A stretch of DNA of 64,000 nucleotides, taken from the UHGV virus genome UHGV-0312702. The stretch is one strand, 5' to 3'. Positions 40,406-47,613 of the stretch are shown here, piece after piece. The position numbers and the translations under genes were made by a program. The stretch's first letter is position 1. The number at the start of each line of letters is the position of its first letter. The DNA is from a virus. The notes below the pieces were generated by a model that worked only from the letters and a program-made list of their open reading frames with translations, did no database searches and had not been told where the DNA came from.

Positions 40406-40481
40406 TGGAGAATCCGAAGGGACTCGAACCCTTATAAACCTGTTTTGCAGACAGGCACATAGCCATTTCTGTCACGGATTC
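40406..40481 (-). tRNA. tRNA-Cys (anticodon GCA)
   Basis: manual fold: acceptor GAATCCG/CGGATTC, T-loop GGTTCGAGTCC, loop CTGCAAA, CCA encoded. Confidence 0.65.
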
Positions 40482-40485
40482 AAAT

Positions 40486-40578
40486 TGGAGGAAGATACCA
40501 GACTTGAACTGGTACACCGATTTCTCAGCTACTGGCAGTTTAGCAAACTGCTCCCTTACCTTTTAGGGTTAATCTTCC
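40486..40578 (-). tRNA. tRNA-Ser (anticodon GCU), long variable arm
   Basis: 93 nt; acceptor GGAAGAT/ATCTTCC; anticodon loop TTGCTAA. Confidence 0.65.
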
Positions 40579-40579
40579 A

Positions 40580-41314
40580 TTATTTCTGTAATGCGCTCTT
40601 CATTTCTGGTGTTGCAATAGTGTCAATCACACCAGTTTTACAAGCATCATCAAACCAGTCTGGTAAGATACCTGCTAAGAACCCATTGATATTCGTTTTA
40701 AGGTACTCTGCAATAAGGGCAGCTTCTTCTTCAATCATCTGCACAACTTCATCTGCATAAGCTGTAATCTTTGAGATACCTTCATTAATCTTACTAACAG
40801 CCTGATTAGCTAAATCAGAAACAGTATCAAGACCCTTATCAATAGCATCTTGTAAGTCACTTAATACATCATTAACGCTGTCTAGTGTATCATTAATAGC
40901 ATCAATAGCTTTTTGACCATACTCTGTAGCAACACCCATAATACCGCTGAATGGTGTACAACCAACTTGTTCTCCCGCTGCACCCATAACATTGGAATAT
41001 CCCTTTGCTACCTGCATACGTGATGAAAACTCGTCAATAGACTTTTGACCGTAGTCTGTTAGGGTCTTAGTAGTTGCTGTAGTGCTTGTCAGACTCGTTG
41101 TAAAGCTGTTTAGAAGGACTGTTGTAAGTCCAGCAGCAACAAGTTTTTCCTTCATTGCAGGGTCTGTTACAGAGCTAATAGAGCTTACAAGTGATGTAGA
41201 GGCAGCTACGGTTCCACCTAGAACTGCTGCACCAGTAATAAGGGGGTTAGAAAACCCTTTACCAGTTTTTAAGAGATTAAAAATCTCCTTACCTTGTCCT
41301 GTCATCTCTTTCAT
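40580..41314 (-). CDS. hypothetical protein inside tRNA cluster
   Basis: start set at ATG 41314 with RBS AAAGGTG; track start 41377 runs through tRNA-Phe. Confidence 0.45.
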   Translation of the reverse strand: MKEMTGQGKEIFNLLKTGKGFSNPLITGAAVLGGTVAASTSLVSSISSVTDPAMKEKLVAAGLTTVLLNSFTTSLTSTTATTKTLTDYGQKSIDEFSSRMQVAKGYSNVMGAAGEQVGCTPFSGIMGVATEYGQKAIDAINDTLDSVNDVLSDLQDAIDKGLDTVSDLANQAVSKINEGISKITAYADEVVQMIEEEAALIAEYLKTNINGFLAGILPDWFDDACKTGVIDTIATPEMKSALQK

Positions 41315-41330
41315 TAAGCACCTTTGAAAT

Positions 41331-41407
41331 TGGTAGTCCAGTGGGATTTGAACCCTCTTCTCATGTTTTTCAGACACGCGCTTTAACCATATAAGCTACT
41401 TGGACTA
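41331..41407 (-). tRNA. tRNA-Phe (anticodon GAA)
   Basis: acceptor TAGTCCA/TGGACTA; loop CTGAAAA; T-loop GGTTCAAATCC. Confidence 0.65.
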
Positions 41408-41412
41408 TAAAT

Positions 41413-41489
41413 TGGGGTGACCTACGGGATTTGAACCCGTATAGACCATGTTCACAGCATGGGTCATTACCATTTATGATAAGGCCACA
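41413..41489 (-). tRNA. tRNA-His (anticodon GUG)
   Basis: loop CTGTGAA, discriminator C. Confidence 0.6.
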
Positions 41490-41519
41490 TTTAAGGACTC
41501 TCGTAAGAACCCTTAGAAG

Positions 41520-41595
41520 TGGCAGCGGCATAAGGATTTGAACCTTAATAGGACAGCTTCAGAGACTGTTGCATTGCCAGTTATGCTATACCGCT
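41520..41595 (-). tRNA. tRNA-Gln (anticodon CUG)
   Basis: loop CTCTGAA, discriminator G. Confidence 0.6.
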
Positions 41596-41600
41596 AAATT

Positions 41601-41679
41601 TGGTACTCCATATCGGATTCGAACCGATACATAACACAGATTTTAAGTCTGGCCTCTCTGCCAATTGGAGTAATGGAGC
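41601..41679 (-). tRNA. tRNA with anticodon UAA (Leu codon UUA) but short variable loop
   Basis: loop CTTAAAA; T-arm ATCGG-TTCGAAT-CCGAT; discriminator A; no long variable arm. Confidence 0.45.
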
Positions 41680-41681
41680 AT

Positions 41682-41756
41682 TGGCGGGGGATGTTGGAAT
41701 TGAACCAACTTCTTCGATTTCAAAGACCGAGGTTTTAACCTTGTAAACTAATCCCC
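41682..41756 (-). tRNA. tRNA-Gln (anticodon UUG)
   Basis: loop CTTTGAA, discriminator G. Confidence 0.6.
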
Positions 41757-41765
41757 TTTAAATCT

Positions 41766-42323
41766 TTACTTTCTTAGTGGATGAATAAAGAATGCCAACA
41801 TAACTCTTTCCCTTGAGAATGCTCTTTCTTCTGGGACAACACTTTTAAGTTTCCACCCAACATAAATTCTCCAGTAAAATTGTTTACCAAAGACTTTAAT
41901 TGATGGGATAAAAGCAAATAATCCCCAAGCATTGCTGTTCCACATTAGGAGATAACCTGTCTGATTATCTTCAGGGTTAGAACTTACGTTGATATTACCT
42001 TTCCACTTAGTAACATCTTTTACATCTCTTCCTAACACATGGTAAGAGAAGTTATAAGCTTTGTTTCTCCAGAGCCATCCAACTCTCTGCATATAAACAC
42101 CGAGCTTACCAATCTTTCTAATCTTAGCCCATCGTTTGATATGACCTGCATCACCATCAATTGGGTTGTCATAAGTCTCCATCCATCTGAAACCAAAAGG
42201 CAGATGACCTTTCTTCTCACTGTAGAATGGGACTACGAAAGGTGCTAAGATAACTGCCAAGATTGCTGCAAATGGCTCTAACAAAGCTAAGAAAATCCAT
42301 GAAGCATACTTCAAATATCTCAT
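41766..42323 (-). CDS. membrane protein
   Basis: hydrophobic N-terminus WIFLALLEPFAAILAVILAPFVVPF. Confidence 0.5.
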   Translation of the reverse strand: MRYLKYASWIFLALLEPFAAILAVILAPFVVPFYSEKKGHLPFGFRWMETYDNPIDGDAGHIKRWAKIRKIGKLGVYMQRVGWLWRNKAYNFSYHVLGRDVKDVTKWKGNINVSSNPEDNQTGYLLMWNSNAWGLFAFIPSIKVFGKQFYWRIYVGWKLKSVVPEERAFSRERVMLAFFIHPLRK

Positions 42324-42562
42324 TGTCTAATCCTAGTAAGGAGGTAAACATTATTATTTGTTTCTGAGTTTTCTGGTAAAGCTGTCTCAAAATTGACGCT
42401 TTTAAATTGTCTCCCACCAAAGTAATGACCAATAAATTTTTGTACTTTTATTGGGTCACATTCCCAGCCAACTTTCAAGAAAATGTGGGTATCTATAGTG
42501 GGAACCCTTACAAACTCAATACTATTGGAATTTTCATGTTCAACGACGATTAATGTTTGCAT
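42320..42562 (-). CDS. hypothetical protein
   Basis: 80 aa coupled ORF. Confidence 0.35.
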   Translation of the reverse strand: MQTLIVVEHENSNSIEFVRVPTIDTHIFLKVGWECDPIKVQKFIGHYFGGRQFKSVNFETALPENSETNNNVYLLTRIRQ

Positions 42563-42580
42563 AAATCTCTCTTATTTATC

Positions 42581-42656
42581 TGGCGCAGGATAAGGGACTT
42601 GAACCCCTATTAACAGCTTCGTAGACTGTTGCTCTATCCATTTGAACTAATCCTGC
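42581..42656 (-). tRNA. tRNA-Arg (anticodon ACG)
   Basis: acceptor GCAGGAT/ATCCTGC; loop CTACGAA. Confidence 0.65.
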
Positions 42657-42661
42657 AAAAT

Positions 42662-42739
42662 TGGTGTTCCAAGACGGATTCGAACCGTCACTAGTACAAG
42701 GTTTGAGCTTGCATCCTCTGCCAATTGGGATACTGGAAC
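42662..42739 (-). tRNA. tRNA with anticodon CAA (Leu codon UUG) but short variable loop
   Basis: loop CTCAAAC; T-arm GACGG-TTCGAAT-CCGTC; discriminator A. Confidence 0.45.
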
Positions 42740-42740
42740 A

Positions 42741-42815
42741 TGGTACTCACTAAAGGACTTGAACCTTTTTCTTCATCTTGTAAGGGTGATGTTTTACCAT
42801 ATAAACTAAGCGAGT
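42741..42815 (-). tRNA. tRNA-Val (anticodon UAC)
   Basis: loop CTTACAA. Confidence 0.55.
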
Positions 42816-42911
42816 GTGAAAGAGGTCTGAAGTTGTGCCACTAACTCAACTCCGTGGAATTTGTTACGGTCTTCAGTTGACTCAAAGTGGTCTTTCACTT
42901 GACCTCTGAAT

Positions 42912-42987
42912 TGGTGCTCCCACAAGGATTCGAACCCTGATAAGTTGCTTACAAGGCAACCGTAATAGCCAATTATACGATAGGAGC
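42912..42987 (-). tRNA. tRNA-Thr (anticodon UGU)
   Basis: stem GTTGC/GCAAC, loop CTTGTAA. Confidence 0.65.
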
Positions 42988-42994
42988 ATTAATT

Positions 42995-43069
42995 TGGAGC
43001 ATCCAGAGGGAATCGAACCCTCAACCTCAGTTTGGAAGACTGTAATTTTCCCGTTTAAACTATGGATGC
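42995..43069 (-). tRNA. tRNA-Gly (anticodon UCC)
   Basis: acceptor GCATCCA/TGGATGC; loop CTTCCAA; discriminator U. Confidence 0.6.
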
Positions 43070-43075
43070 ACTAAT

Positions 43076-43151
43076 TGGTGGAGAAGCAGGGAATTGAACC
43101 CTGTACTTAAGTTTGCAAAACTTATGTTTTAACCATGTAAACTACATCCCC
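43076..43151 (-). tRNA. tRNA-Ala (anticodon UGC)
   Basis: G3:U70 wobble in acceptor stem; loop TTTGCAA. Confidence 0.6.
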
Positions 43152-43157
43152 AATGTT

Positions 43158-43233
43158 TGGTACAGGTGGAGGGAATTGAACCCATCGTCTTACTGATTAA
43201 GAGTCAGCCGCATAACCATTTTGCTACACCTGC
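43158..43233 (-). tRNA. tRNA-Lys (anticodon CUU)
   Basis: loop CTCTTAA. Confidence 0.55.
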
Positions 43234-43240
43234 ATTAATT

Positions 43241-43316
43241 TGGTACACCTAGAGAGATTCGAACTCACACTGAGCAGATTCTAAGTCTGCTGCCTCTACC
43301 AGTTGGGCTATAGGTG
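43241..43316 (-). tRNA. tRNA with anticodon UAG (Leu codon CUA) but short variable loop
   Basis: 6-bp anticodon stem AGCAGA/TCTGCT; loop CTTAGAA; discriminator A. Confidence 0.45.
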
Positions 43317-43563
43317 CATTAAATCTTTTTAGAGAACTTCTAAGAACCTAAGCAACAAGGTTCCACAACAAGCTGTAATAACCTTAGAAGCCCTCTAAAA
43401 AGACCTAAAAAGGTCTTTGCATAGTCTTGTTTAATCCGGTGACTAGAACCTTTGGAGAGCTTGATATTATCTCTTCTCCGTGACACCTACTAGGTGCTTT
43501 ACTGTGCGTGTACGACAATACACGAGGGATACCAAAGCAACATCCGAATGAAGCTTGGCTTTA

Positions 43564-43653
43564 AATCTTATTAGGCGGTAAGTAAAGGAGTCGAACCCTC
43601 ACCGTATCTCTACAGTGGCAACTGTTTTCAAGACAGTTTGGCTACCATTAGCC
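43564..43653 (-). tRNA. tRNA-Ser (anticodon UGA), long variable arm
   Basis: acceptor GGTAGGT/ACTTACC; loop CTTGAAA; discriminator G; CC but no terminal A encoded. Confidence 0.55.
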
Positions 43654-43676
43654 GCTACCTACCCCTAATAAGACTT

Positions 43677-43759
43677 TGGCATGGGACGGAGGAGTTGAAC
43701 CCCTTTGAAACGGTTTTGGAGGCCGTTGCTCATGCCTTAGAGTCTTAACATCGTCCCAC
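43677..43759 (-). tRNA. atypical tRNA-like gene, candidate tRNA-Trp (anticodon CCA)
   Basis: acceptor GTGGGAC/GTCCCAT; loop CTCCAAA; about 7 extra nt in D-arm region. Confidence 0.4.
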
Positions 43760-43901
43760 ACTATAATTCGAAACTTACCGTATTATCTCAACACTGTAAA
43801 GCCCCTTCTCAGATTATTTACATGTTCTGGAAAACATGAGATACAGACCACCTCCCTACAGGAAGACCCGCTTAGGTCGTCTAAGTAATCTGCTAACTAA
43901 T

Positions 43902-43978
43902 TGGCACACCCTACAGGATTCGAACCTGTAACTAACGATTTAGAAGACCGTTGCTCTATCCAATTGAACTAAGGGTGC
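43902..43978 (-). tRNA. tRNA-Arg (anticodon UCU)
   Basis: acceptor GCACCCT/AGGGTGT; loop CTTCTAA. Confidence 0.65.
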
Positions 43979-44271
43979 ATTAATCTTTAAAGACTCTCTT
44001 AGAAAGCCCTTAAAGATGCCCACCTTATTAATCATACCGTGGGCTAGTACGCCAAATTCTTTGATGAGGGATTGGAAGACCTCACTGGTGTTTAGCCTAT
44101 CAAGCTACTGCCAGAAAAACATTGTCGTTTGCATTTATTTTAAATTTGCAAAATAGACGCTACGCAACGAAAACTATTCAGAATATGTACAACAAATTTC
44201 CCCACATTGTGTTACGTCTAACGCTCATGTATTGGTGTTTGAATTATACATATTATGAATTATTTTTAGTT

Positions 44272-44300
44272 ACTATAAAGTAGTCACATCTCAATGTCAA
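44272..44300 (-). promoter_or_regulatory. strong sigma70-like promoter inside tRNA cluster
   Basis: minus strand TTGACA (44295-44300), 17-nt spacer, TATAGT (44272-44277). Confidence 0.55.
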
Positions 44301-44315
44301 CAACTTTATTGAAAT

Positions 44316-44390
44316 TGGTTGTAGGTGAGGGTATCGAACCCTCTTCTAACGGTTATCAGCCGTTTGCATTACCATTTATGCTAACCCACA
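44316..44390 (-). tRNA. tRNA-Ile (anticodon GAU)
   Basis: loop CTGATAA. Confidence 0.6.
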
Positions 44391-44392
44391 AT

Positions 44393-44469
44393 TGGAGGTT
44401 CAGGTGGGAATCGAACCCACATTCATAGGGCTTATGAAACCCCTGCATTACCTTATCTGCGACTGAACC
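44393..44469 (-). tRNA. tRNA-Met (anticodon CAU)
   Basis: loop TTCATAA; G-C-rich anticodon stem. Confidence 0.55.
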
Positions 44470-44473
44470 ATAT

Positions 44474-44549
44474 TGGTAGAAGTGGAGGGATTCGAACCCA
44501 TCGCCTGTCAGATTAAAAGTCTGCCGCATCACCATTCTGCTACACTTCC
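44474..44549 (-). tRNA. tRNA-Lys (anticodon UUU)
   Basis: loop CTTTTAA. Confidence 0.55.
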
Positions 44550-44698
44550 ATTAAATTATCTTTGTAGATAAGCTACCCAGACTTGCTTAAGGTCTGTAGC
44601 GATGTGCCTTGTTGGGTTTAAATCTAGAATTTACCCTTTCACCCTTTGTGGTCGCATACTCACAGGTAAGCTTAATAGCTCACCTACAAAGATAATTA

Positions 44699-44830
44699 CC
44701 AGACCGTTGTTTATCATCTTAAGTGCTACCATTACACCAACTCGACATCTGCCGAGTGAAGGAATCGAACCTTCGCCTTTTCTTTACCGGAGAAATAGAT
44801 TGTTTAAGTTTTGCTGTAAACGGTCTTCTG
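44699..44830 (-). ncRNA. candidate Y-RNA-like ncRNA E1 with tRNA-like module
   Basis: 5' box CAGAAGACC; terminal helix AGACCGTT/AACGGTCT; internal T-arm GAAGG-TTCGATT-CCTTC, acceptor-like hairpin ACTCGGC-AGAT-GTCGAGT, D-arm-like TGGTGTAATGGTAGCAC. Confidence 0.4.
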
Positions 44831-44843
44831 TAAATTTGTTGAG

Positions 44844-44917
44844 CCAGACCAAGTTTTAAATTTTCAAAATTAAATTGGCTTGAAATTTCATACATTCTTG
44901 CTGAATTTGGTCTTCTG
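44844..44917 (-). ncRNA. candidate Y-RNA-like ncRNA E2
   Basis: same 5' box; terminal helix AGACCAA/TTGGTCT (covaries with E1/E3). Confidence 0.35.
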
Positions 44918-45004
44918 CTCCTTTAAAGAATACTCGCAAGAACTCTTTAAGGGAGGGGCTAAATAGCCCTCTCAAAACATCATTTTGAAATACTTATTAT
45001 AATT

Positions 45005-45082
45005 TGGCGGTTACGAAGGGATTTGAACCCTCATCATCTCCCGTGACAGGGGAGTATTTTAACCAGATTAAACTACATAACC
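45005..45082 (-). tRNA. tRNA-Asp (anticodon GUC)
   Basis: stem CTCCC/GGGAG, loop CTGTCAC, discriminator G. Confidence 0.65.
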
Positions 45083-45087
45083 TTTAT

Positions 45088-45175
45088 TGGTGTGCCGTGT
45101 AGGAGTCGAACCTACCGAGTCTCAATGACAAGGGATTTACAGTCCCCACCGCTACCATCTACGGGATAACGACAC
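45088..45175 (-). tRNA. tRNA-Tyr (anticodon GUA), long variable arm
   Basis: 88 nt; loop CTGTAAA. Confidence 0.6.
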
Positions 45176-45184
45176 ATTTTAATT

Positions 45185-45261
45185 TGGCGGTTAGTCAGGG
45201 ATTCGAACCCTGTGCCATTCGCTTAACAGGCGACCGCACATACCTTATGTGCTTCCTAACC
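45185..45261 (-). tRNA. tRNA-Asn (anticodon GUU)
   Basis: loop CTGTTAA. Confidence 0.6.
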
Positions 45262-45272
45262 TTAATACATTG

Positions 45273-45331
45273 CCAGACCGTGTTTTTCTTTTATCCGCAA
45301 AAAGTAGTTTGTTGCTGAATACGGTCTTCTG
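45273..45331 (-). ncRNA. candidate Y-RNA-like ncRNA E3
   Basis: 5' box; terminal helix AGACCGT/ACGGTCT; begins about 6 nt after a tRNA 3' end. Confidence 0.35.
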
Positions 45332-45337
45332 CAAAAT

Positions 45338-45413
45338 TGGAGGCGGGTGCAGGAGTCGAACCTGCCGATACCATGCTAATGAGACATGTGAGACGCCCTT
45401 TCTCTATACCCGC
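45338..45413 (-). tRNA. tRNA-Met (anticodon CAU), second copy
   Basis: loop CTCATTA; possible 1:72 mismatch. Confidence 0.55.
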
Positions 45414-45425
45414 AATTCTTAATGA

Positions 45426-45498
45426 CCAGACCAAATCTCTTCTTTGTCCGATTGAATGTCAGATGAATAAGATTAAATTTGCTGTAATTGGTCTTCTG
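45426..45498 (-). ncRNA. candidate Y-RNA-like ncRNA E4
   Basis: 5' box; terminal helix AGACCAA/TTGGTCT. Confidence 0.35.
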
Positions 45499-45505
45499 TC
45501 AAAAC

Positions 45506-45580
45506 TGGTGTCGTAGACAGGATTCGAACCTGCGAGCAACTGATTGAAGGTCAGGTGGCTAACCATTTGCCTTCTACGAC
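45506..45580 (-). tRNA. tRNA-Glu (anticodon UUC)
   Basis: acceptor GTCGTAG/CTACGAC; loop CCTTCAA. Confidence 0.6.
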
Positions 45581-45581
45581 A

Positions 45582-45938
45582 TTAAACCATTGTAATTCCA
45601 CTATGAACCTCTCTGTGGCAATTAGCGCATAGCAAAACACATTTATCAAGTTCTTTTTTAACCTTTTCCCAAGATGCACCCATAAGTTTTGATGGTGTAT
45701 TCTCTTTTTCGTTTGGGTTAAGGTGATGCCATTCTAAAGCATTTTTACATTTATTATAGCCACAAATTATGCAACTATCGCCATAAAGCTTATATGCTTT
45801 CTCCCTATTGGCATCCTCTCTAAGTTTTGTCCTTAATGCACAACATTTTAGACAATTTACTCTATTACCGGCGTTACCATTCTTATGAATGCTATGTTCA
45901 GTTAAACCATGAACTGGACATTCTTTTAAAAATCTCAT
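45582..45938 (-). CDS. HNH endonuclease
   Basis: EWHHLNP and CANCHREVH motifs plus Cys pairs; start at ATG 45938 with RBS AAGGGG; track start 46016 runs through tRNA-Pro. Confidence 0.7.
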   Translation of the reverse strand: MRFLKECPVHGLTEHSIHKNGNAGNRVNCLKCCALRTKLREDANREKAYKLYGDSCIICGYNKCKNALEWHHLNPNEKENTPSKLMGASWEKVKKELDKCVLLCANCHREVHSGITMV

Positions 45939-45955
45939 AGTAACCCCTTTAAATT

Positions 45956-46032
45956 TGGTCTCTGTTGGAGGACTTGAACCTCCGGCCTTACCGCCCCAAA
46001 CGGAACGCTCTACCAAGCTGAGCTAAACAGAG
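45956..46032 (-). tRNA. tRNA-Pro (anticodon UGG)
   Basis: acceptor CTCTGTT/AACAGAG; loop TTTGGGG. Confidence 0.6.
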
Positions 46033-46197: not shown

Positions 46198-47613
46198 TTA
46201 CCAGATGTAACGGTCAATCATTACTGCTTTGAGCATTACGCTGATTGGGTCAAACTTCTCACCACCAAGCAGGGCTTTTAAAGTGGCTGGGGAGAACCCT
46301 GATACCATTGCTACACCGTTATCCTTAACAGACACTTCGCAAGTACCACTACGGTTTGCTAAGTACCAGAATACCAGTTGTGGCATTTCGTATCCAGCTT
46401 TTTTGTACTTACTACGAATTGCTTCAAAGTTTGTACGACCATTTGCACCATCAACCTGATTGAACTCCATATCAGAGAAGATGATAAGCTTACTTGGCAT
46501 ATCTTTCTGAGTCAAGTTGTTTCTCTTGCCTGTCTCAAGAATACGGTCAAAAGCTGCTTGTAAGTTGGTTGAACCATATTCAACATGACGCATTACCTGA
46601 CGGTGACGGTTTCGTAAATCACCACTCAGTTCGATGAAATGAGGGTTTGTTGAATAAACCATTAACTCGTTCTTAAAGCAACCTGTATTGCGTTCTGCTA
46701 CATACAAGGCAAGTGATACACCAATATCGAGGGCAGTAATTGAGCCAAGATTCACCCAAGACATTGAGCTTGAAACATCAGTCATACACAAGATGTTTTC
46801 ACCTTCTGCCATCCAGTTTGGTAGTGCTTTCCACTGCTCATTAGCAACATCTGCATTACCATACTTGATAGATTTAATCACATCGTATGGATAAACAGCA
46901 CCAGCATTAATCTTAGTCTCACCCTTTGATAAGGACTCAACGTAAGCTTTGTAGCGTTCTCCATCTTTACGGTTAAATAATTTTTGGTAACGTGCAGCAG
47001 CAAGTGAAGGAATCTTACTGTAGTCAATCTTACCAAACTCATTAGCAGAGATTTTTTGTTCAACTGTATCAGATAGTGCAGACAGCAGTGTGCGGTACTC
47101 TTTCTCGCTCAAGTTTGCAAACTTACAGAAACGTTTTACAAACTGTTTGTGACGTGGTTTTACTCGTGGTAACCACTTAGCTGCTAAACCTGCTGTTGCA
47201 GGGTCTAGTAAAGCTGCTTCTAAATGTTTGAAGGCATCTGTCTCAAAACGAGTACCTACAAAGATTTTGAAGTCATCAAAGCGACCAAGCTCTGCAATCT
47301 TATCCATAATGCGAAGAACCTGTGTAGGCTCTAAAACTTTATCTTCAATCGCTTGAAGTAAAACAGTTCGGAAAGCCTTACGCTCACCCATACCTTCTCG
47401 TACATCTCGCATATGCAGTAAAATACGAACTGCAACATCAACATCCTCATGCAAAGCTTTGTAGAACAAGTCTGGTAAGATTTCTACATTGCTACGGCTA
47501 GAACCAGCAGCTTTGTAAAAGTCTACAAGAGCAGACATTGATGAAGTATGGTTTACAGCACCATTTTCAGTTCGACCTGCATGAAGGTGCGCATGTTTAA
47601 ATAATTCGCTCAT
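46198..47613 (-). CDS. Ro60/Rsr-like protein (TROVE-like N-terminus + vWA domain)
   Basis: MIDAS DVSSSM plus LGSI, GSTN...IIFSDMEF segments resembling Ro60 vWA as recalled from memory. Confidence 0.55.
   Translation of the reverse strand: MSELFKHAHLHAGRTENGAVNHTSSMSALVDFYKAAGSSRSNVEILPDLFYKALHEDVDVAVRILLHMRDVREGMGERKAFRTVLLQAIEDKVLEPTQVLRIMDKIAELGRFDDFKIFVGTRFETDAFKHLEAALLDPATAGLAAKWLPRVKPRHKQFVKRFCKFANLSEKEYRTLLSALSDTVEQKISANEFGKIDYSKIPSLAAARYQKLFNRKDGERYKAYVESLSKGETKINAGAVYPYDVIKSIKYGNADVANEQWKALPNWMAEGENILCMTDVSSSMSWVNLGSITALDIGVSLALYVAERNTGCFKNELMVYSTNPHFIELSGDLRNRHRQVMRHVEYGSTNLQAAFDRILETGKRNNLTQKDMPSKLIIFSDMEFNQVDGANGRTNFEAIRSKYKKAGYEMPQLVFWYLANRSGTCEVSVKDNGVAMVSGFSPATLKALLGGEKFDPISVMLKAVMIDRYIW

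Follow-up and report, generated by a model that had tools for sequence, protein, structure and literature searches.

What kind of RNA combines the parts of a tRNA in the wrong order? This question is raised by an element, E1, in the viral genome UHGV-0312702, of which one strand of 64,000 nucleotides was analysed (the window). The window represents a Felixounavirus (FelixO1-like myovirus), and at least 80% of a 1-kb query from the surroundings of E1 is matched in 215 phage records. An array of 25-26 tRNA genes occupies positions 40406-46032 on its minus strand (ARAGORN, Rfam), and E1 is located in the 455-nt gap between tRNA-Asp and tRNA-Lys(UUU) of this array. By its structure, homology and position, E1 is most likely the Y RNA partner of a Ro60-like protein that is encoded by the same phage. 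On the basis of comparative sequence analysis, we consider it probable that E1 is a YrlA-type bacterial/phage Y RNA, that its handle, consisting of a 7-bp closing stem and a conserved internal-loop motif (UUACAGCAA ... AAAC), is bound by the Ro60-like ring, and that the resulting ribonucleoprotein particle (RNP) is active in overcoming the defence system ppl.

A first-pass annotation had described, on the minus strand, a T-arm followed by an acceptor-like minihelix with a 4-nt loop and a D-arm-like segment, and both the description and its coordinates proved exact. E1 and its parts, from the 5' to the 3' end, are as follows:

44699..44831, minus strand: E1, complete Y-RNA-like element, composed of the flank ACAGA, closing stem, CAGCAA loop, tRNA-like module, closing stem and GG
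44820..44826, minus strand: 5' strand of the closing stem, AGACCGU, pairing with 44707-44701
44811..44816, minus strand: handle motif CAGCAA, which hardly varies among 21 aligned elements from distant phages and is the candidate binding site of the Ro60-like protein
44779..44795, minus strand: V hairpin UUUCU-CCGGUAA-AGAAA, resembling an anticodon arm (5-bp stem, 7-nt loop)
44758..44774, minus strand: T-arm GAAGG-UUCGAUU-CCUUC
44740..44757, minus strand: AS, a closed acceptor-like helix ACUCGGC-AGAU-GUCGAGU with 7 bp and a 4-nt loop
44723..44739, minus strand: U8-G9 linker and D-arm GUGU-AAUGGUA-GCAC with A14, G18 and G19 (D-arm at 44737-44723)
44701..44707, minus strand: 3' strand of the closing stem, ACGGUCU, with the conserved GAUAAAC linker directly 5' of it

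Limits of 44699-44830 agree with the conserved flanks (A)CAGA...GG around the closing stem AGACCGU/ACGGUCU. Within E1, UUA separates the 5' strand of this stem from CAGCAA, a 15-nt linker joins CAGCAA to the V hairpin, AGGC lies between V hairpin and T-arm, and the linker from the D-arm to the 3' strand of the closing stem terminates in GAUAAACA. Reading of the minus strand agrees with the earlier claim that the 3' half of a tRNA stands before its 5' half, and a strict scan for a T-arm, a perfect hairpin and a D-arm in this order detected one site in the window, compared to 0.02 expected per simulated 64-kb window. At E1 in its native order, no call was obtained with ARAGORN or with Rfam at the gathering threshold, and neither ARAGORN nor the Rfam tRNA model recognized a canonical contiguous cloverleaf with free acceptor ends; the partial match of the Rfam tRNA model (22 bits, gathering threshold 29) covers the V hairpin and the T-arm. 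None of the related records that were inspected has an RNA annotated at the E1 site, and some of them have small hypothetical CDSs there.

The support for the structure of E1 comes from covariation and not from thermodynamics. The gap was aligned from Felixounavirus, Mooglevirus and Suspvirus, and in this alignment the T-arm, the D-arm and the closing stem are invariant, while the AS helix exists in three fully compensated versions: ACUCGGC/GUCGAGU, ACACGU/GCGUGU with a UACG loop, and ACCCUUC/GAAGGGU with a GCCAAACA loop. RNAalifold applied to this MAFFT-based alignment recovered the closing stem together with V, T, AS and D. The stems of more distant elements were misaligned by MAFFT, and iterative covariance models were used instead. 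In the resulting structural alignments, 96.6% and 96.1% of the cells are paired, compared to 69% and 64% after shuffling and 35-56% in slid registers; changes on both sides were found in 24 of 27 pairs, and none of 500 shuffles matched the observed values. The closing stem is paired in 100% of its cells and shows both-side changes in five of the six modelled pairs (21 sequences) with an invariant G2:C, and RNAalifold adds a seventh pair to it. In the wider family, four of five T-arm pairs covary, and the AS helix has both-side changes in all seven. An independent RNAalifold run on the family alignment classified 21 of 23 pairs as compensatory, with a covariation term of -8.1 kcal/mol.

This pattern bears directly on the proposal that E1 is a decayed tRNA, which is ruled out by compensatory covariation in every helix. 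More generally, E1 could be a non-functional relic, for instance the site where two decayed tRNA genes in tandem meet, or it could belong to a gene for a small protein. Junctions of adjacent tRNAs do mimic the pattern, and a dimeric-tRNA origin has been proposed for YrlA; the compensatory changes in all helices, which include the AS and the closing stem, argue against a relic. E1 is also no closer to any resident tRNA than these tRNAs are to each other, and a recent copy of a resident tRNA was rejected on this ground. A coding function is suggested by an 85-aa plus-strand open reading frame (ORF) that overlaps E1 in the window, and by the coding sequences (CDSs) 0137 and 0138 annotated there in phage Bas63. 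However, Sf13, SUSP1, KMM2 and PC79-13 have no ORF of at least 40 aa on either strand although the RNA is intact there, and the protein-coding reading of the gap was rejected. We consider either version of this explanation hardly credible. Four candidates from other loci were discarded as junctions of two ordinary adjacent tRNAs, namely a scanner match in L052 and matches of a covariance model (R2, described below) at L089 615-690, L097 5790-5911 and L092 2580-2694.

A loop closes the acceptor end of the tRNA-like module, and the break in its chain falls between D-arm and anticodon-like arm. Throughout the family, U8, A14, G18-G19 and the T-loop GUUCRANUCC are conserved, and position 9 is a purine. 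Among 15 distant members, 13 have a covarying Levitt pair (eight with G15:C48, five with A15:U48), and the two exceptions are shortened copies. Un-permuting the module yields the order acceptor 5' strand, D-arm, hairpin, T-arm and acceptor 3' strand, and ARAGORN recognizes a regular tRNA-Thr(GGU) in such constructs of the window, Sf13 and SUSP1, in which the V hairpin is taken as the anticodon arm. In the permuted tRNA genes of Cyanidioschyzon merolae, the 3' half is likewise located upstream of the 5' half and the acceptor strands are joined by a short linker, as in E1. These tRNAs mature via a circular intermediate and the eukaryotic/archaeal splicing endonuclease, which acts on bulge-helix-bulge motifs, and they are normal decoding tRNAs. 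E1 differs from them by its bacterial host, by the lack of a conserved anticodon and by an additional stem with the handle that closes the break.

A functional circularly permuted tRNA-Thr(GGU), in line with one of the options of the first-pass annotation, would be generated by RNase P cleavage in the AS loop 5' of G1, 3' trimming, CCA addition and aminoacylation, and would decode ACC/ACU either in two pieces or after re-ligation. The regular cloverleaf of the un-permuted sequence fits this proposal, and so do the 7-bp AS that is followed by an A at the discriminator position and the fact that the array's sole tRNA-Thr is UGU. The YrlA of M. smegmatis, which has a 7-bp AS, provides a precedent because it is cut by RNase P and receives CCA. 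Decoding by E1 is nevertheless unlikely because the anticodon-like loop is not conserved. The V loop reads CUGGUAA (U33, anticodon GGU, A37, A38) in Sf13, SUSP1 and PC79-13 but CCGGUAA with C33 in the window; it comprises 6 nt in some other Felixounavirus, is replaced in the Citrobacter phages Michonne and Mordin, which lack a valid anticodon, and retains its shape with different 'anticodons' (CUGCUAA, CUGUUAA) in other phages. As far as the aligned loops indicate, it is the shape of the anticodon loop that is conserved and not its decoding identity. In addition, the Susp/Sf13 lineages have an AS of 6 bp with a UACG tetraloop, and E1 of the window has a non-canonical Levitt pair. Conservation is highest in the closing stem and CAGCAA, which have no bearing on decoding and also occur in elements without a tRNA module. 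Thus, the anatomy of a permuted tRNA is confirmed, whereas a decoding tRNA is very unlikely.

In Michonne and Mordin (L003/L004), the AS loop of the E1 orthologue is GCCA-AACA, i.e. discriminator N73, CCA and a spacer, which is a further point for a permuted tRNA and resembles the junction of adjacent CCA-encoding tRNA genes in the array. This loop is consistent with the published dimeric-tRNA origin of YrlA or with an RNase P/CCA-type maturation in that lineage. Together with the tRNA-array location of E1, it supports the published proposal of an origin of YrlA from dimeric tRNA transcripts.

The recurrence of the anticodon-loop shape (U33, A37, A38) with a variable 'anticodon' also suggests another role, in which E1 would act independently of any protein as a tRNA decoy for a host defence nuclease that targets tRNAs, or for a modification enzyme. 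Phage tRNAs are thought to counter tRNA-targeting defences (PhageMaP discussion). We consider a protein-independent decoy unlikely, because it leaves unexplained why the handle is common to paralogues without tRNA parts and why the RNA is tightly linked to the Ro60-like gene. A decoy function as such is compatible with the Y RNA explanation, as the RNP itself could present the decoy.

The handle is the feature that E1 shares with other elements of the same array. No feature of the family is better conserved than the motif (U)UACAGCAA, which comes after a covarying stem of 6-7 bp with an invariant G2:C. In the window, AGACCNNNNNCAGCAA occurs in exactly four copies, all on the minus strand and in spacers of the tRNA array, and GGUCUGG closes each of them downstream. 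Besides E1, these are:

45426..45499, minus strand: Ea, handle-only paralogue between the tRNA at 45509-45580 and tRNA-Met
45273..45332, minus strand: Eb, handle-only paralogue between tRNA-Met and tRNA-Asn
44844..44918, minus strand: Ec, handle-only paralogue GCAGA-AGACCAAAUUCAGCAA ... UUGGUCU-GG, identified by exact motif matches

Among the four handle elements of the window, the tRNA module is present in E1 only. Ec encloses an AU-rich hairpin instead of a tRNA-like module and is nearly invariant across the three genera, and short model matches were obtained for Eb in relatives, at an apparently equivalent site as judged by position and layout. Short hairpins that combine UUACAGCAA with a covarying stem of 6 bp directly adjoin the Ro60-like gene in distant phages. 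As the handle is common to tRNA-bearing and tRNA-less elements, it is the best candidate for the contact with the protein. The set of handle-bearing RNAs resembles the pairs YrlA/YrlB and Yrn1/Yrn2, in which several Y RNAs combine a common protein-binding stem with different effector loops.

Two further ideas on the handle were rejected. GGUCUGG lies on the 3' strand, which is the wrong one for an equivalent of the metazoan Ro site GGUCCGA, and distant members do not conserve it. CUUGGUCUG (44853-44845) could have formed a long-range helix with CAGACCUUAAG (44596-44586), but the change in the sister genera is compensated within the local hairpin instead.

The proposed protein partner is encoded 1.4 kb upstream of E1 on the same strand:

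46198..47613, minus strand: gene of the Ro60-like protein, 471 aa, Pfam DUF2828 and DUF7788, PHROG 850 'RNA-binding protein', orthologue of Bas63 gp130

DUF2828 and DUF7788 are the sole Pfam matches of this protein, and neither TROVE (PF05731) nor vWA_Ro60 (PF25045) was found in it. Sequence and profile comparisons with the PDB gave nothing relevant; its likeness to Ro60 is derived from fold comparison only. An AlphaFold2 model, which was calculated from a 32-sequence alignment, reached a predicted local distance difference test score (pLDDT) of 88.4 and a predicted template modelling score (pTM) of 0.88. When this model was compared with the PDB by Foldseek, the best nine matches were all full-length Ro60/Rsr/TROVE proteins (E values 4e-8 to 4e-7, template modelling scores 0.5-0.67), including Xenopus and human Ro60, Rsr of D. 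radiodurans and Ro60 of the Thermus phage phiLo. The matches below these nine cover the vWA domain only. The MIDAS residues (metal-ion-dependent adhesion site; DxSxS...T...D) are invariant in the protein family. Moreover, HHalign connected the family to the TROVE Ro60 of phage Bxz1 (gp220, which matches both TROVE and vWA_Ro60) with a probability of 68% and an E value of 5e-5, from the last TROVE helix through the MIDAS. The predicted structure indicates that the neighbouring gene product has the Ro60 ring-plus-vWA fold, in which a HEAT-repeat ring (TROVE) precedes a vWA domain with a MIDAS motif.

The window protein is 98% identical to Bas63 gp130, which the PhageMaP preprint, based on a screen of Bas63 in 2024, described as structurally Ro60-like and required to counter the ppl defence system. 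The authors guessed that Y RNAs might be among the tRNA genes of this phage. In Bas63, E1 scores 112 bits and is located in the Asp-Lys gap, beneath the opposite-strand CDS bas63_0137; it is not annotated as a tRNA. The small hypothetical CDSs bas63_0137 and bas63_0138 (L097 4249-4523) lie over E1 and the adjoining module C (see below) and are probably spurious, given that their ORFs are not conserved across genera; any fitness data that PhageMaP assigned to them would actually report on the RNAs.

The protein family is found in 710 phage records, covering phages of Proteobacteria, Actinobacteria, Firmicutes, Campylobacter and cyanobacteria, and among the mycobacteriophage copies, some already bear the label 'Ro-like RNA binding protein'. 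A literature search on 'DUF2828' returned nothing relevant. A record named 'Staphylococcus phage SA1' (GU169904.1; H69, H102) is 96-97% identical to the Ro60-like gene and the tRNA spacer of Felixounavirus; it is almost certainly a chimeric or contaminated assembly and not a feature of a Staphylococcus phage.

The association between this RNA and the protein family was analysed in 80 viral-contig loci around homologues of the protein (given here as L numbers), 65 of which encode proteins with only 39-47% identity. Two covariance models were used: R1 was built from eight Felix/Moogle/Susp sequences, and R2 from the distant matches of R1, containing DUF2828-linked RNAs only. The noise level of model matches is approx. 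20-27 bits, and E1 (44826-44701) scores 145.7 bits with R1 and 112.4 bits with R2. Full-length R1 matches in distant loci are always on the strand of the gene and within 2 kb of it. They were obtained in L026 (four), L077 (three) and L049 (two), in each case in tandem, and in L068, L031, L027 and L046; R2 adds L080, L086 and L044/45. In total, 10-11 of the 65 distant metagenomic loci have a match beside the Ro60-like gene, on its strand and within 2 kb. Among cultured phages, the Klebsiella phage phi1_175008 has two tandem R2 copies right after the gene (77 and 66 bits), and the Mycobacterium phage Gabriela has one copy after its 'Ro-like' gene (70 bits). Listeria and Campylobacter phage loci gave weak and uncertain matches only. 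The covariance model thus detects the same RNA beside this protein family in unrelated phages.

Tandem tRNA-like copies in uncultured phages, with two to four copies each, were located at L026 4319-5880 (+), L077 4090-5239 (+) and L049 7920-8261 (+); two of the copies in L026 are wholly devoid of the AS helix.

In other phages, the surroundings of the Ro60-like gene are in keeping with a theme of RNA repair or tRNAs. A tRNA array encloses the gene in the Klebsiella phage and adjoins it in the Campylobacter phage, and in the Listeria phage List-36 the gene is 1.3 kb from a downstream gene for RtcB ('tRNA splicing ligase'), which echoes the rsr-yrlBA-rtcBA operon of Salmonella. List-36 also contains a near-threshold match to ROOL RNA (RF03087) at L093 1426-1977 (+), with 91.5 bits against a gathering score of 99.1 and an E value of 2e-17, approx. 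1 kb upstream of its DUF2828 'RNA-binding protein' gene.

The distribution of the RNA also speaks to its possible function as a mere processing signal. A tRNA-shaped 'punctuation' could recruit RNase P or 3' enzymes and free the neighbouring RNAs in the Asp-Lys spacer without any role in an RNP. E1 indeed belongs to a polycistronic tRNA array, the scanned part of which (down to 44300) gave no terminator-like site on the minus strand, conserved structured RNA flanks E1 on both sides (Ec upstream, module C downstream), and tRNA-like structures are known as RNase P signals. Yet the RNA tracks the Ro60-like gene and not the tRNAs. It also occurs outside tRNA arrays, in L077 with an upstream hairpin and its own terminator-like hairpin and in Gabriela between protein genes, and the YrlA literature describes an AS closed by a 4-nt loop as a poor substrate of RNase P. 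A pure processing signal, which also leaves the handle unexplained, is quite unlikely.

How closely does E1 correspond to the Y RNAs that are already known? YrlA RNAs resemble circularly permuted tRNAs and were defined by a GNCGAAN0-1G motif near the 5' end, by V, T, AS and D stem-loops in this order, by tRNA-like tertiary positions that include a covarying Levitt pair, and by a same-strand TROVE gene no more than 4 kb away (Chen et al. 2014). Binding to Ro60/Rsr in vivo and tRNA modifications (pseudouridine 55, dihydrouridine) are further characters of this class. E1 has V, T, AS and D in the same order within a 5'/3' stem, with all five helices present and covarying. Its Ro60-fold gene is located 1.4 kb away on the same strand and is Ro60-like by fold, not by Pfam TROVE. 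Of the tertiary nucleotides, U8, A14, G18-G19 and UUCGA are present. In these respects E1 resembles the YrlA RNAs (RF02553) of Salmonella Typhimurium, M. smegmatis and the cluster-C phages Bxz1/ET08. YrlA is often accompanied by a second Y RNA without a full tRNA module (YrlB), and E1 is likewise accompanied by the handle-only paralogues.

The covariance models link the two groups reciprocally. RF02553 has a gathering score of 69 bits. This threshold is narrow, because even the genuine YrlA next to the Bxz1 TROVE gene, with 32.5 bits, falls below it. Scores in the same range were obtained with RF02553 for DUF2828-linked elements of L026 (38.2 bits, full length), L031 (35.8) and L080 (26.7) and for the two elements of phi1_175008 (36.4 and 34.3 bits). 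Conversely, R2 finds the YrlA of Bxz1 (29.3 bits, E value 0.004), which the Felix-only model R1 did not detect. E1 is connected to the intermediates matched by RF02553 via both R1 and R2. Thus, of the options listed by the first-pass annotation, it is the tRNA-mimic module of a YrlA-type RNA that is borne out, by the V-T-AS-D order, the same-strand Ro60-fold gene and these reciprocal links.

Differences from YrlA are equally evident. The partner of E1 is a DUF2828/DUF7788 protein and not Pfam TROVE/vWA_Ro60, GNCGAAN0-1G is replaced by UUACAGCAA in the E1 family, and the closing stem has only 6-7 bp, whereas the stem of YrlA is long and composed of several parts. The T and D stem sequences of the window's lineage deviate from the YrlA consensus. 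In contrast to S. Typhimurium YrlA, which has no anticodon loop, the V arm of E1 is a full anticodon-arm mimic, and unlike YrlA, E1 is located inside a tRNA array together with other elements that make up four handle paralogues. E1 thus represents a variant that differs in the protein family, the binding motif, the complete tRNA mimic with an anticodon-like arm, the tRNA-array location and the four paralogous handles.

Several observations weigh against E1 being a YrlA-type Y RNA that acts in counter-defence. In the window gap, neither the YrlA model RF02553 nor the Y_RNA model matches even at an E value of up to 10. GNCGAAN0-1G is absent from the 5' region of E1, where CAGCAA occupies the 5' side, and the sole GGCGAAGG is found at the V/T junction; the Rfam alignment does not equate CAGCAA with the CGAA motif. 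In the Felix/Moogle/Susp group, positions 15:48 are A:C or A:A, i.e. a non-canonical Levitt pair, and the full tRNA-like version is detected by R1 and R2 in a minority of the distant loci only. The minimum free energy fold, proposed earlier as a check on the structure, contains all five helices, but its stability is not unusual (z = -1.36, single-sequence folding). Fitting of the family alignments to the model structure introduces a bias towards pairing; it is lessened by the slid-register controls and RNAalifold, and the slid controls together with the earlier MAFFT-based result argue that the covariation signal is real. The ppl phenotype was shown for the protein gene only, and a literature search found no relevant paper, including no transcriptome of FelixO1-like phages.

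A related phage system is that of the Thermus phage phiLo, in which phiRo60 is encoded together with Yrl1 and Yrl2 and which was proposed to hijack the host factor PNPase for counter-defence (PMC12135203). Both systems have a phage Ro60-fold protein, adjacent stem-bulge RNAs and more than one Y-like RNA per locus. Unlike E1, the phiLo Yrls are described as stem-bulge-stem RNAs with a CGAA motif, and no tRNA-like domain was reported for them; phiRo60 is, unlike the window protein, recognizable as a Ro60 homologue by sequence (PMC12135203).

If E1 is a Y RNA of this kind, it would be transcribed as part of the tRNA array, starting from promoters that lie shortly downstream of the gene for the Ro60-like protein, where two candidates are located:

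46179-46151, minus strand: sigma-70-like promoter match between the Ro60-like gene and the tRNA array, a consensus match only
46088-46059, minus strand: second sigma-70-like promoter match in the same interval, a consensus match only

The transcript may then be trimmed back to the closing stem, and the handle would be bound by the Ro60-like ring protein, i.e. the orthologue of Bas63 gp130. The L-shaped tRNA mimic could serve as an effector arm that recruits or baits a host tRNA-binding factor, as proposed for canonical YrlA/Rsr. The resulting RNP would be the active form of the protein and would allow FelixO1-like phages to overcome ppl, with the RNA being required for this function.

Ro60-Y RNA particles are known in animals, bacteria and a few phages, but their effectors and their purpose are poorly understood. 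Our data extend the Y RNA concept to a protein family that is filed as a 'domain of unknown function', and they indicate which RNAs are candidates for Bas63 gp130, namely one permuted tRNA mimic and three handle-only paralogues, in spacers of the tRNA array and not among its annotated tRNAs. Binding, the role of the tRNA mimic and the evasion of ppl thereby become directly testable in a tractable E. coli phage. More tentatively, DUF2828 rings and CAGCAA-handle RNAs may constitute a distinct and very widespread class of phage RNPs, in which the complete permuted tRNA mimic, with its anticodon-shaped loop, serves as bait or adaptor and the RNA is essential for counter-defence against ppl and possibly against tRNA-targeting systems. 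If true, this would be an RNA-guided or RNA-baited anti-defence particle.

Small non-tRNA RNAs within a phage tRNA cluster are also present in phage T4, where the stable RNAs 'species 1' and 'species 2' (rnaC, rnaD) are co-processed with the tRNAs; T4 is not known to encode a DUF2828 protein. In the window, module C (44555-44694, minus strand) is located directly 3' of E1 and comprises a structured region of approx. 140 nt that is closed by a 13-bp long-range helix, AUUAUCUUUGUAG/CUACAAAGAUAAU. This helix covaries with that of the Moogle/Susp phages (GUAG/CUAC vs GCAG/CUGC), while the interior varies between genera, and Rfam gave no match to the module. It contains a hairpin that resembles a small handle, ACAGACC-UUAAGCAA-GUCUGG (approx. 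44597-44572), with a covarying stem (AGAC/GUCU vs AAACC/GGUUU). Immediately after tRNA-Asp, the hairpin GAGAGGGCUAUUUAGCCCCUC (44950-44975, minus strand) has a stem that is nearly invariant in three genera, with one change in Michonne, and a variable loop. No U-run follows the hairpin, so that it does not obviously represent a terminator; it may serve as a site of processing or of protein binding.

Upstream in the array, an ORF of 144 aa for an HNH endonuclease (45582-46016, minus strand; PHROG 2255, E value 4e-30) overlaps the 3' part of tRNA-Pro (45956-46032). In Bas63 and MBP4696116, tRNA-Glu directly follows tRNA-Pro without this ORF, which looks like a homing-endonuclease insertion. The tRNA at 45509-45580 (minus strand) was missed by ARAGORN and is recognized by Rfam with 55.4 bits, at a position that corresponds to the tRNA-Glu next to tRNA-Pro in the relatives.

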